DNA from: Escherichia coli 042
GTDB lineage: Bacteria > Pseudomonadota > Gammaproteobacteria > Enterobacterales > Enterobacteriaceae
Reading direction: 5' to 3' (one strand)
Assembly (NCBI RefSeq): GCF_000027125.1
Contig: NC_017626.1
DNA: 64,000 nt
Part shown: in pieces, positions 1 to 48,600 of the stretch
How the letters are laid out: each line of letters begins with the position of its first letter
Numbering within the stretch: position 1 is the first letter of the stretch
Program-made: the position numbers and the translations under genes
Notes under the pieces: generated by a model
Database searches by the model: none
Told to the model about the DNA's origin: nothing
The model's input: the letters and a program-made list of their open reading frames with translations, nothing else

Positions 1-790
<790 letters not shown>

Positions 791-881
791 ACAACGCCGA
801 AGATGTTTTGGCGGATGAGAGAAGATTTTCAGCCTGATACAGATTAAATCAGAACGCAGAAGCGGTCTGATAAACAGAATT

Positions 882-1001
882 TGCCTGGCGGCCTTAGCGC
901 GGTGGTCCCACCTGACCCCATGCCGAACTCAGAAGTGAAACGCCGTAGCGCCGATGGTAGTGTGGGGTCTCCCCATGCGAGAGTAGGGAACTGCCAGGCA
1001 T
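882..1001 (+). rRNA. rrf: 5S rRNA
   Basis: 120-nt match to E. coli 5S (TGCCTGGCGGCC...GGAACTGCCAGGCAT). Confidence 0.93.
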
Positions 1002-9948: not shown

Positions 9949-10095
9949 GATTCGCCTGAACATGCCCTTTTTTCGTAAGTAAGCAACATAAGCTGTCACG
10001 TTTTGTGATGGCTATTAGAAATTCCTATGCAACAACTGAAAAAAAATTACAAAAAGTGCTTTCTGAACTGAACAAAAAAGAGTAAAGTTAGTCGC

Positions 10096-10204
10096 GTAGG
10101 GTACAGAGGTAAGATGTTCTATCTTTCAGACCTTTTACTTCACGTAATCGGATTTGGCTGAATATTTTAGCCGCCCCAGTCAGTAATGACTGGGGCGTTT
10201 TTTA
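10096..10204 (+). ncRNA. spf: Spot 42 sRNA
   Basis: Recognised GTAGGGTACAGAGGTAAGATGTTCTATCTTTCAGACC... ending in hairpin CCCCAGTCAGTAATGACTGGGG plus T-run. Confidence 0.85.
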
Positions 10205-10329: not shown

Positions 10330-10962
10330 TTATTCGCCGTCCTGCGTTTCTTCTACAGGCTGCATCTCGCTAAACCAGGTATCCAGTTTCTGCCGCAGCT
10401 TGTCCACGCCTTGTTTCTTCAGTGAAGAGAACGTTTCAACCTGCACATCACCGTTAAACGCCAGCACCGCTTCACGCACCATATTCAATTGCGCTTTACG
10501 TGCGCCGCTTGCCAGTTTGTCCGCTTTGGTCAGCAGCACCAGCACGGCGATATTGCTGTCTACCGCCCACTCAATCATCTGCTGATCCAAATCTTTCAGC
10601 GGATGGCGAATATCCATTAGCACCACCAGACCTTGCAGGCTCTGACGTTTTTCGAGGTATTCGCCGAGCGCGCGCTGCCATTTGCGCTTCATCTCTTCCG
10701 GGACTTCCGCGTAGCCATAGCCGGGCAAGTCAACCAGACGCTTGCCGTCAGCCACTTCAAACAGGTTGATAAGCTGGGTGCGCCCTGGGGTTTTTGAGGT
10801 CCGCGCCAGGCTTTTCTGGTTAGTCAGCGTGTTCAGCGCGCTGGATTTACCTGCGTTGGAACGGCCTGCAAAAGCCACTTCAATTCCGGTATCGGAAGGT
10901 AAGTGGCGAATATCAGGCGCACTCATCACAAAATGCGTCTGTTGATAATTCAAATTAGTCAA
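10330..10962 (-). CDS. engB: Ribosome-biogenesis GTPase EngB (YihA)
   Basis: 210-aa ORF; G1 motif [10 protein letters not shown]3 DLPGYG, G4 TKADK. Confidence 0.92.
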
Positions 10963-11232
10963 AGCGGTCGTCTCCGTCAGTCAAAGCTTTGCGGCGATTA
11001 TACCTGAACCATAATAAAAGGCGGATTTTTCGGCGTGAGCGTTGTAAGTAAAAGCCATACGCTTTGTGAGACATTGCCGATAGTCTTTATGCGAAATAGC
11101 AGAGAAAATTCTGCGATGCATGTCAAATAAGCTATATAAATCAGTTAATTGCTTTTATATAAAACTCTGAAAATGTGCAAATACTGATGGCGGTTGATTG
11201 TTTGTTTAAAGCAAAGGCGTAAAGTAGCACCC

Positions 11233-11477
11233 ATAGAGCGAGGACGCTAACAGGAACAATGACTCAGGATGAGGGTCAGGAGCGCCAGGAGGCGAAGACA
11301 GAGGATTGTCAGGAAGACAAACGTCCGGAGACGTAATTAAACGGAAATGGAATCAACACGGATTGTTCCGGCTAATGGAAAAACAGGGTGTGTTGGCGGC
11401 CTGCAAGGATTGTAAGACCCGTTAAGGGTTATGAGTCAGGAAAAAAGGCGACAGAGTAATCTGTCGCCTTTTTTCTT
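11233..11477 (+). ncRNA. csrC: CsrC sRNA (CsrA-sequestering)
   Basis: About 245 nt dense in GGA/AGGA motifs (AGGACGC, CAGGATGA, CAGGAGCG, CAGGAAGA...), ending in hairpin GGCGACAGAGTAATCTGTCGCC plus T-run. Confidence 0.8.
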
Positions 11478-11543
11478 TGCTTGCTTTCTGTTAGATTCCG
11501 CCGCAAATCTATACTGAATAAAACGGCTAAAAGACGAACCATT

Positions 11544-12053
11544 ATGAAACCATCATCTTCAAACTCACGCAGCAAAGGTCATGCAAAAGCGCGTCGAAAA
11601 ACACGCGAGGAGCTGGATCAGGAAGCTCGTGACCGTAAGCGTCAGAAAAAACGTCGTGGTCATGCGCCGGGCAGCCGCGCAGCGGGCGGTAACACCACGT
11701 CAGGCAGCAAAGGCCAGAACGCACCGAAAGATCCACGTATTGGCAGTAAAACCCCTATTCCATTGAGCGTGACTGAAAAAGTCACCAAACAGCACAAACC
11801 GAAGAGTGAGAAACCTATGCTTTCACCGCAGGCGGAGTTGGAATTACTGGAAACGGATGAGCGTCTGGATGCGCTGCTGGAACGTCTGGAAGCAGGCGAA
11901 ACCCTGAGTGCCGAAGAGCAATCCTGGGTGGATGCCAAACTGGATCGTATTGATGAGTTGATGCAGAAACTCGGCCTCTCTTATGACGATGACGAAGAAG
12001 AGGAAGAAGACGAGAAGCAAGAAGACATGATGCGTCTGCTGCGGGGCAACTAA
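11544..12053 (+). CDS. yihI: Der GTPase-activating protein YihI
   Basis: 169-aa product starting [19 protein letters not shown]; basic N-terminus, acidic C-terminus. Confidence 0.85.
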
Positions 12054-18249: not shown

Positions 18250-18305
18250 TGTTGCACCAATATAGTGCTTCAATGGAAACATTAAGCACCATATTGGTGC
18301 AATGA
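18250..18305 (-). promoter_or_regulatory. NtrC enhancer binding sites upstream of glnA
   Basis: Two TGCACCA-N-GGTGCA-like palindromes (TGCACCAATATAGTGC, GCACCATATTGGTGCA). Confidence 0.7.
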
Positions 18306-18452
18306 CCTTTGGATAACCCTTTTTATGCTCCGTGAAAGCGATCACAAAGGGACTCTGCAATACTTGTTTGCGGAGGATGTTTGTGATCCTGTTTTGTAGT
18401 GCGATTAATCCGTGTACAATAACGCGCTATTTCTAATGCCTGAGGCAAAGTT

Positions 18453-45672: not shown

Positions 45673-48600
45673 TTACACCTTTTCCACATTCACAAGGAAG
45701 GACTTAAACTCCGGCGTCTGCGTGTTCGCATCACCAACGAAAGGCGTTAACGTATTGGCAATAAAGCCTTTTTTAGCTACGCCTTCATAGCCCCAGTGAA
45801 TCGGAATACCGATGGTATCGATATCTTTGCCGTTCGCTTTCAGCGTGCGAATACGTTTGGTCACCACCGCTTTGGCTTTGATATAGCCACGGTTGGAGGA
45901 GACTTTCACGGTATCGCCCTGGGCAATGCCAAGTTTATTCGCCAGCGACTCCCCGATTTCCACAAACTGCTCTGGTTGCAAAATCGCGTTCAACAGCGCG
46001 TGTTTGGTCCAGTAGTGGAAGTGCTCGGTCAGACGATAGGTGGTTCCGACATACGGGAACTTATCGGCTTTACCCAACGCTTCGGCGTCGTCTTTAAAGA
46101 TACGCGCAGCCGGGTTCGAGATAACGTTTGGATGCAGCGGGTTAGTTCCCAGCGGCGTTTCAAACGGCTCGTAGTGTTCCGGGAACGGACCTTCCGCCAT
46201 CTTATCAAGGGCAAACAGACGTCCCATGCCTTCCTGCTGCATGATAAACGGCCCTACGCCGCTGCCCGGAGGCGCTGCGCTGTAGTCCGGAATATCCCAG
46301 CCGGTCCACTTAGTGCCGTCCCATTTCAGCAACTGACGCTTCGGATCCCACGGGTTACCCTGCGGATCTGCGGAGGCGCGGTTATACAGGATGCGGCGAT
46401 TAAGCGGCCATGCCCATGCCCAGCCCAGCGTGTTACCGAGGCCAGACGGATCGGCGTTATCACGGCGTGCCATCTGGTTACCTTCTGGCGTCCAGCTACC
46501 GGCGAAAATCCAGCAGCCACAGGAGGTGGTACCGTCATCGCGCAGTTGGGCGAACGAGCTAAGTTGTTGGCCTTTCTTGACGATAACCGCACCGGTTGCC
46601 GGATCGGTAATATCGGCCAGCGCCTTACCGTTGCTCTCCATCGCTACTTCTTCCGACTTCGGCTCATGCGGGATAGCGTAGTTCCAGGTCATGTTCAGCA
46701 CCTGGTCCGGGTTCGCGCCACCCTGTTCGGCATACATCTTGCGCAAGCGCAGGAAGATACCGGAGAGGATCTCGCCATCAGTCAGCGCAATCCCCGGGGC
46801 GTCCGCACCTTTCCAGTGCCACTGCAACCAGCGACCGGAGTTAACGATTGAACCGTTCTCTTCCGCGAAGCAGGTCGATGGCAGACGGAACACTTCGGTC
46901 TGGATCTTCGACGAGTCAACTTCGTTCAGCTCACCGTGGTTCTGCCAGAAGTTAGAGGTTTCAGTGTTCAGCGGGTCGATGGTGACGAGGAACTTCAGTT
47001 TCGACAGACAACCGATCACTTTGTTTTTGTTCGGGAATGAGGCAACAGGGTTAAAGCCCTGGCAGATATAGCCATTGACCTTGCCTTCTTTCATCATCTC
47101 GAAGTATTGCAGGACGTCGTAGCCTTTATCCCACTTCGGCAACCAGTCAAAGCCCCAGCTATTTTCCGCCGTCGCTTTATCACCAAAGAAGGCCTTCATC
47201 ATAGAGACGAAGAATTTCGGGTAGTTGCCCCAGTAGTTTACCTGGCCTTCCAGCAGCGGTTTTGGCGTGTTGGCGGTAAGGTAGGTTTGCAGATCGGTCT
47301 GCTTCTCGCTCGGCAGCGTCATGTAACCCGGCAGGCTCTGCGACAGCAGCCCCAGGTCCGTCAGCCCCTGAATATTGGAGTGACCGCGCAGGGCGTTAAC
47401 GCCGCCGCCTGCCATCCCCATATTGCCGAGCAGCAGCTGGATCATCGCCATCGTACGAATGTTTTGCGCACCAACAGAGTGTTGCGTCCAGCCGAGGGCA
47501 TACAGGAACGAGGCAGTTTTATCGTGAGCACTGGTTTCGGCGATGTATTCGCAGACTTTCAGGAACGCGTCTTTTGGCGTACCACAGATGTTTTCAACCA
47601 CATCTGGCGTGTAGCGGGAAACGTGCTGTTTCAGCAAGTTCCACACGCAGCGCGGATGTTGCAGCGTGGTATCGCGTTTGGCGAAGCCGTTTTCGTCCAG
47701 TTCGTAAGTCCAGGAGGATTTATCGTACTTGCGTTTTTCCGCGTCATAGCCGGTGAACAGGCCATCTTCAAAGCCGTAATCCTCACGCACGATCAGGCTG
47801 GCGTTGGTATAGGCTTCGGTGTATTCGCGGTTGAATTTTTCATTGTTCAGCAGGTACAGCAATACGCCTGACAGGAAAGCAATGTCAGTACCGGAACGAA
47901 TAGGGGCATAGTAGTCAGCCACCGCCGCCGTACGCGTAAAGCGAGGATCGATCACAATCAGCTTCGCGCCATTGTGAATTTTGGCTTCCATCGCCCAGCG
48001 GAATCCGACCGGGTGAGCTTCAGCGGCGTTACCGCCCATCACCACGACGAGGTTGGCGTTCTTGATGTCGACCCAGTGGTTGGTCATCGCACCGCGACCA
48101 AATGTTGGAGCAAGACTTGCTACCGTTGGTCCGTGTCAGACACGCGCCTGGTTGTCGACCGCGAGCATACCCAGCGCGCGGGAGAATTTTTGCGTTAAAT
48201 AGCCGGTTTCGTTACTCGACGCGGAAGCACACAGCATCCCGGTGGAGAGCCAGCGGTTAACGGTCACGCCTTCGGCGTTTTGCGCAATGTAGTTAGCATC
48301 GCGGTCTTCTTTCATCAGTTTGGCGATGCGATCAAACGCCTCTTCCCAACTGATTTGCTGCCATTTATCAGAACCTGGCGCACGGTATTCCGGAAACTTC
48401 AGACGGCTTTCGGAGTGGATGAAATCCACCAGGCCAGCGCCTTTCGGACAAAGTGCACCGCGGTTGACCGGGTGATCCGGATCGCCTTCGATATGGAAGA
48501 TAGATGCTTTGGCGTTTTTTGCTCCGTCACCGAGGCTGTACATCAACAGCCCACAGCCTACGGAACAATAGGTGCAGGTATTACGGGTTTCGCGGGTGCG

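Follow-up and report, generated by a model that had tools for sequence, protein, structure and literature searches.

Identity, structure and conservation of the csrC small RNA locus between yihA and yihI of Escherichia coli

Introduction

What is encoded in the 581-bp gap between yihA and yihI in a 64-kb window of E. coli DNA (the whole stretch analysed here, 64,000 nucleotides)? The initial annotation, made from the sequence letters, had read positions 11233–11477 as CsrC, an RNA rich in GGA motifs that acts as a decoy for the protein CsrA. The characterisation of CsrC dates back to 2003, and it is a textbook example of a small RNA that acts by sequestering a protein. Both CsrC and CsrB carry multiple high-affinity GGA sites by which they sequester CsrA from its mRNA targets (PMC7652899), and the location between yihA and yihI is a hallmark of csrC (PMC1488887). 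The same stretch could also be read as a leader of yihI, as a degraded protein-coding gene or as purine-rich intergenic DNA in which GGA clusters by chance. Here we examine the locus for its identity, conservation, fold and control elements and weigh these readings.

Results

The locus coincides with csrC of K-12

The whole window was scanned with Rfam 15, and a match to RF00084 (CsrC) was obtained at 11233–11486 on the plus strand, covering model positions 1–255 of 255 and scoring 277.9 bits against a gathering score of 61 (E = 1.2e-87). The covariance-model search that had been proposed as a check was therefore positive over the full length. The curated record of K-12 MG1655 lists the ncRNA csrC (b4457, "small regulatory RNA CsrC") at 4051036–4051281, and this gene aligned to window positions 11233–11478 (+), 246 nt, with a single mismatch (245/246 identical). 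The Rfam match extends to 11486 because the model takes in conserved bases past the terminator. The gene was placed as follows.

11233–11478, plus strand: csrC gene, full-length RF00084 match coinciding with K-12 b4457

The csrC gene sits inside the gap between yihA (= engB; 10330–10962, minus strand, 210 aa) and yihI (11544–12053, plus strand, 169 aa), divergent from the former and co-directional with the latter; the neighbours named initially were confirmed by both open reading frames (ORFs) and annotation. Membership of the CsrB family (RF00018) was considered and rejected, as the top-scoring model of clan CL00106 (CsrB/Rsm) at the locus was CsrC, the neighbours are yihA and yihI, and the RNA has 246 nt and 14 GGA. 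We conclude with near certainty that 11233–11478 (+) is E. coli csrC, the gene of a CsrA-sequestering ncRNA. The interval first given for it was right to one base, and so was the statement that it is not novel: CsrC is already known as an annotated K-12 gene, from which this copy differs by 1 base in 246, and nothing at the locus is new.

The lone difference within the RNA is at 11376, where the window has T and K-12 has A, giving AUGGA in place of AAGGA. T at this position also occurs in three other Escherichia representatives that were fetched (L015, L033 and L042). Among species, this flanking base varies freely (A, G, C or T), and the adjoining GGA is identical in 64/65 homologs. That the AAGGA/AUGGA polymorphism slightly tunes CsrA occupancy between strains is a smaller possibility. 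Upstream of the RNA, two more substitutions separate the window from K-12, at 10992 and 11146.

csrC is conserved in sequence and gene order across Enterobacteriaceae

The 246-nt csrC was found with at least 95% identity in 5424 of 5426 complete E. coli genomes; the copies were at least 99% identical in 5359 records and 95–99% identical in the other 65. Species-representative genomes were further scanned with the pattern AGCGCCAGGAGGCGAA-N3-8-AGGA-N3-8-AGGA, which returned 66 loci, and 65 of them held a CsrC homolog according to nhmmer. The remaining locus, in Frankia (L032), was a chance pattern match carrying no CsrC homolog. The homologs belong to 65 other Enterobacteriaceae species of about 20 genera, including Escherichia, Salmonella, Citrobacter, Enterobacter, Klebsiella, Kosakonia, Leclercia, Lelliottia, Kluyvera, Trabulsiella, Yokenella and Phytobacter. 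The order yihA-csrC-yihI, with yihA divergent upstream and yihI co-directional downstream, was kept in all 59 loci showing both sides, a count from which 6 truncated loci of the 65 were left out.

In the alignment of 66 sequences, the mean column identity was 77% and indels of 1–2 nt were frequent. Thirteen of the 14 GGA had a counterpart no more than a few columns away in at least 61 of the 65 homologs, and each homolog carried 12–17 GGA on the sense strand and 0–2 on the antisense strand.

Two records met during these searches have unusual labels. A contig labelled Chryseobacterium sp. 18061 (Bacteroidota; CACSKA010000012.1, L026) holds an Enterobacteriaceae-type yihA-csrC-yihI locus, with a yihA about 90% identical to that of E. 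coli, and the locus is near-identical to that of 'Citrobacter sp. 18056' from the same study; the contig likely reflects contamination or a mislabelled assembly. The 169-kb 'plasmid unnamed02' (NZ_CP170376.1, L071) carries the chromosomal block polA-spf-yihA-csrC-yihI-hemN-glnG; it is probably a piece of chromosome that received the wrong label in a hybrid assembly, not a mobile copy of csrC.

Most GGA motifs lie in hairpin loops or linkers

The plus strand of 11233–11477 contains 14 GGA and the antisense strand 2. Nine of the sense motifs are AGGA, namely six CAGGA, one AAGGA and two GAGGA. The earlier count of at least nine (A/C)AGGA-type motifs holds when the two GAGGA are included; taken strictly, (A/C)AGGA occurs seven times in the window and eight times in K-12, which has AAGGA where the window has ATGGA (11375–11379).

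The RNA folded far more stably than its shuffled versions, with a minimum free energy of −87.4 kcal/mol (z = −6.8). Of the 14 GGA, the Rfam consensus structure places six in hairpin loops (11242, 11267, 11288, 11303, 11327 and 11407), five in single-stranded linkers (11253, 11279, 11312, 11343 and 11349), and three in or adjoining stems (11360, 11377 and 11439), the last at the foot of the terminator. By partition-function folding, the unpaired probability was about 0.6 at GGA (the average of 14 per-motif values) versus 0.40 for the whole RNA. The initial annotation had suggested that several GGA could sit in hairpin loops and had named RNA folding as a check; with 6 of the 14 in loops and 5 in linkers, this was borne out. 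The elements of the fold are listed below.

11237–11248, plus strand: hairpin 1, AGCG-AGGA-CGCU, GGA in the tetraloop (Rfam consensus structure)
11260–11278, plus strand: hairpin 2, UGACUC-AGGAUGA-GGGUCA, GGA in a 7-nt loop (Rfam structure and folding)
11283–11294, plus strand: hairpin 3, CGCC-AGGA-GGCG (Rfam structure; unpaired probability of GGA 1.0)
11297–11310, plus strand: hairpin 4, GACA-GAGGAU-UGUC, GGA in the loop (Rfam structure; 84.8% of cells paired)
11321–11334, plus strand: hairpin 5, ACGUC-CGGA-GACGU, GGA in the tetraloop (Rfam structure; 97.4% of cells paired)
11354–11395, plus strand: hairpin 6, long and imperfect, with two GGA (11360 and 11377) bulged or in the stem (Rfam structure)
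11403–11429, plus strand: small hairpins GC-AAGGAUU-GU (GGA in the loop) and ACCC-GUUAA-GGGU (Rfam structure; 98.5% of cells paired in each)
11438–11477, plus strand: Rho-independent terminator with a stem of 16–18 bp, a GUAA loop and a U6CU3 tail (terminator scan and Rfam helix)

When the Rfam structure was laid on the 66 sequences, 86.4% of the pair cells held standard pairs, compared to 40–48% in a control in which the 3ʹ partners were slid by 1–3 columns. Compensatory double changes were seen in four helices (1, 5, 6 and 10). Helices 2, 6 and 7 were paired in 65–74% of cells on the MAFFT alignment, which is low partly because MAFFT visibly misaligns the Enterobacter-type hairpin 2. In hairpin 1, the outer pair switches between G-C and A-U in 25/66 sequences, and the GGA occupies the same columns in 57/65 homologs; the GGA of hairpin 2 is kept in 64/65 homologs and that at 11407 in 65/65. 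Hairpin 3 is 100% paired and invariant in 66/66 sequences, partly because its stretch served as the search pattern. Hairpin 5 shows a compensatory U-A/C-G switch in 20 sequences. Of the whole fold, hairpin 6 is held with the least certainty; the MAFFT alignment showed pairing in 67–74% of its cells, and 19–21 sequences switched between C-G and A-U.

The strong intrinsic terminator noticed at the end of the RNA was recovered by a terminator scan at 11438–11477; its stem counts 18 pairs, including 7 G-C, closes on a 4-nt loop and runs into TTTTTTCTTT. It is nearly invariant: its helix in the Rfam structure is 98.9% paired across the 66 species, with an A-U/U-A double change in 3 sequences.

A putative weak promoter and a UvrY site precede csrC

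A strict sigma-70 scan upstream of csrC returned no promoter at the set threshold; a poor match to the promoter consensus is expected, since the csrC promoter is known to be activator-dependent. In an alignment of 63 upstream sequences, GTAAAGT at 11219–11225 was nearly invariant, TTG at 11198–11200 was invariant, and T at 11201 was about 90% conserved. By conservation and position, these blocks would represent a weak −35/−10 pair, correctly spaced for a start at 11233. The putative promoter elements and the upstream sites are as follows.

11198–11203, plus strand: putative −35 element TTGTTT, with a 16-bp spacer to the −10 element (conservation; poor consensus match)
11220–11225, plus strand: putative −10 element TAAAGT, at −13 to −8 from the RNA 5ʹ end at 11233 (conservation and position)
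11065–11082, unstranded: UvrY (BarA-UvrY) site, imperfect 18-nt inverted repeat TGTGAGACATTGCCGATA, at −168 to −151 (exact match to the published site)
11043–11048, unstranded: TGTAAG half-site, 16 bp upstream of the UvrY repeat (sequence fits the description in PMC4682653)

The UvrY repeat of csrC was mapped in E. coli by ChIP-exo and DNase I footprinting by Zere et al. (PMC4682653). Within the upstream alignment, TGTGAGACATTG was strongly conserved across genera, and the TGTAAG half-site was conserved at 70–90% or more per position. In Salmonella csrC, the second half of the inverted repeat differs, reading ...TTGACCATT (PMC4682653). A loose UvrY consensus allowing 3 mismatches gave 35 matches in the 64-kb window versus 57 expected, showing no enrichment. 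Taken alone, the loose consensus is uninformative; the site is accepted solely because its sequence is identical to the footprinted one.

Nearer to yihA, a further conserved block, GATTATACCTGAAC...AAAAGGC, spans 10996–11022. ATTATA at 10997–11002, which reads TATAAT on the minus strand, is likely the −10 element of yihA.

The junction with yihI

As csrC and yihI lie on the same strand, separated by a gap of 66 nt whose length is conserved (a median of 58 nt from the end of the nhmmer match across species, range 54–88), the element might act chiefly in cis, as a leader or upstream transcript that controls yihI by read-through. However, a very strong, nearly invariant terminator stands between the two genes. 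Moreover, the 30 nt past the CsrC terminator (11486–11516, TTTCTGnTAGATTCCGCCGCAAnTCTATACT) are almost invariant in 66 Enterobacteriaceae species of about 20 genera and surpass much of CsrC in conservation. Their last letters are TCTATACT, which leaves about 28 nt to the start codon of yihI. This stretch is probably the yihI promoter, with TCTATACT as an apparent −10 element of yihI's own, and we take it to resemble a sigma-S-type extended −10. Published work, too, has CsrC acting in trans on CsrA, and we regard a role mainly as a yihI leader as very improbable.

Since the 30 nt past the terminator are almost invariant, the csrC terminator and the yihI promoter may form a tightly packed module, in which CsrC transcription or read-through could modulate YihI, the GTPase-activating protein of Der. 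We consider such modulation unlikely; if true, it would tie the Csr system to the control of ribosome assembly.

A pseudogene is annotated over csrC in RefSeq

To what extent csrC is visible in current annotation was assessed in 40 evenly sampled RefSeq records of E. coli. In all 40, the only feature listed where CsrC matches is a 'hypothetical protein'; an ncRNA is absent. Four records inspected closely, including that of a K-12 derivative (NZ_AP018488.1, NZ_CP009789.1, NZ_CP024717.1 and NZ_CP170376.1), carry a pseudo-CDS flagged 'frameshifted; internal stop', which corresponds to CsrC positions 27–193, equivalent to window positions 11259–11425. Among the records examined, csrC is named only in the curated MG1655 record. 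The remark that ORF-based annotation easily misses this gene was correct and in fact fell short, as the gene is mis-annotated beyond being missed.

Taken at face value, the pseudo-CDS produced by PGAP would make the region a degraded protein-coding gene, and the plus strand over csrC does hold five ORFs of at least 20 aa (22–39 aa). When these were traced across 62 non-Escherichia homologs, however, none was conserved: the ATG at 11259 was kept in 2/62, and ORF lengths from the aligned starts ranged from 2 to 60 codons. The frequent indels of 1–2 nt also speak against a reading frame, the conserved GGA triplets and the stems with compensatory changes are the signature of an RNA, and the curated K-12 annotation is an ncRNA. 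A degraded gene is thus scarcely credible here. Because no ORF overlapping csrC is conserved, the PGAP pseudo-CDS is, judged by these alignments, a systematic annotation artefact.

The last reading, by which the GGA cluster is a chance feature of purine-rich intergenic DNA, finds some ground in the moderate enrichment of GGA alone over local dinucleotide shuffles (14 observed versus a mean of 8.9, with at least 14 in 54/5000) and can be dismissed, given that seven MAGGA were attained in 1/5000 shuffles, that in sliding 245-nt windows over the 64 kb the maxima of 14 GGA (mean 3.4, sd 1.9) and seven MAGGA (mean 0.49) were unique to csrC, that the strand bias is 14 to 2, that the motifs are conserved position by position over about 20 genera, and that the covariance-model E value is 1e-87.

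Spot 42 and other Rfam matches in the window

The Spot 42 sRNA gene (spf) lies between polA and yihA at 10086–10204 (+), where RF00021 scored 122.8 bits; K-12 annotates a small protein, SpfP, within spf. Spot 42, about 1 kb from csrC here, was reported in 2020 to raise CsrC levels in Salmonella (PMC7591399). Direct pairing between Spot 42 and CsrC was examined with RNAduplex and rejected: 249 of 300 shuffled CsrC sequences paired at least as stably as the full RNA, and for the first 60 nt of CsrC this was so for 242/300 shuffles. The published effect of Spot 42 on CsrC is exerted on a transcriptional fusion and need not involve pairing.

Further matches of the Rfam scan are as follows.

1–999, plus strand: tail of an rrn operon that precedes polA, with the 3ʹ part of a 23S rRNA gene, truncated at the window edge, and a 5S rRNA gene
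18264–18371, plus strand: ES222 sRNA family, little studied, full length, 133 bits
42954–42996, plus strand: ES036/CssrF, a little-studied E. coli sRNA family, 45.8 bits against a gathering score of 37.6
48083–48141, minus strand: SECIS_3 selenocysteine insertion element, 84.3 bits

Judging from the corresponding position in K-12, the SECIS_3 element presumably lies within fdoG (formate dehydrogenase-O).

Discussion

The GGA sites, structure, terminator and UvrY box described above all fit the mechanism established for CsrC in the literature, as far as can be read from the sequence. According to this mechanism, csrC would be transcribed from its own activator-dependent promoter into an ncRNA of roughly 245 nt that ends at a strong intrinsic terminator and exposes some twelve GGA motifs, most of them in the loops of short hairpins or the intervening linkers. 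Each GGA motif would bind one face of a CsrA dimer, so that one CsrC could hold several dimers; CsrA would be kept off lower-affinity mRNA sites, and genes such as those for glycogen synthesis and biofilms would be freed from translational repression. Phosphorylated UvrY, bound about 160 bp upstream, would switch csrC synthesis on, CsrD would render CsrC accessible to RNase E for removal, and CsrC would act beside its larger paralogous sponge CsrB.

The transcription of csrC, the binding of CsrA and the regulation by UvrY, CRP and CsrD are taken here from published work, in which expression and CsrA antagonism refer to the K-12 allele. Transcription of csrC is activated by phosphorylated UvrY of the BarA-UvrY system (PMC4682653). 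In E. coli, cAMP-CRP is reported to repress csrC in competition with UvrY, in the account of Pannuri et al. (2016) given in PMC7591399. Both CsrD and RNase E are needed for the decay of CsrC, a process that unphosphorylated EIIA-Glc stimulates (PMC5027483).

For the scanning of genomes, csrC serves as a positive control, being a real non-coding RNA that is recognisable from raw sequence. The pass of a PGAP-style pipeline leaves this global regulator unnamed, which calls for caution when annotations are mined for pseudogenes or regulatory RNAs.

The closest known system is CsrC of K-12 (b4457; Weilbacher et al. 2003, cited in PMC7652899), which is like the RNA described here in locus, neighbours, length and ends. 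Its hairpins, terminator, UvrY site and promoter region are the same, and within the RNA it differs at 11376 only. CsrC of Salmonella enterica and other Enterobacteriaceae is orthologous, with yihA and yihI as flanks, 12–17 GGA, like hairpins and terminator, and a conserved upstream SirA/UvrY site (PMC4682653, PMC7591399), whereas its linkers and long central hairpin have diverged. More distantly, CsrB (RF00018, clan CL00106) and RsmX, RsmY and RsmZ of Pseudomonas likewise sequester CsrA or RsmA by multiple GGA hairpins. Sequence searches started from CsrC fail to find CsrB (PMC1488887), which differs in being longer (about 360 nt), in carrying 22 GGA and in its locus near syd; it also needs IHF for activation, which csrC does not (PMC4682653). 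CsrB and RsmX/Y/Z are activated by BarA-UvrY or GacS-GacA, with decay in E. coli proceeding through CsrD and RNase E.
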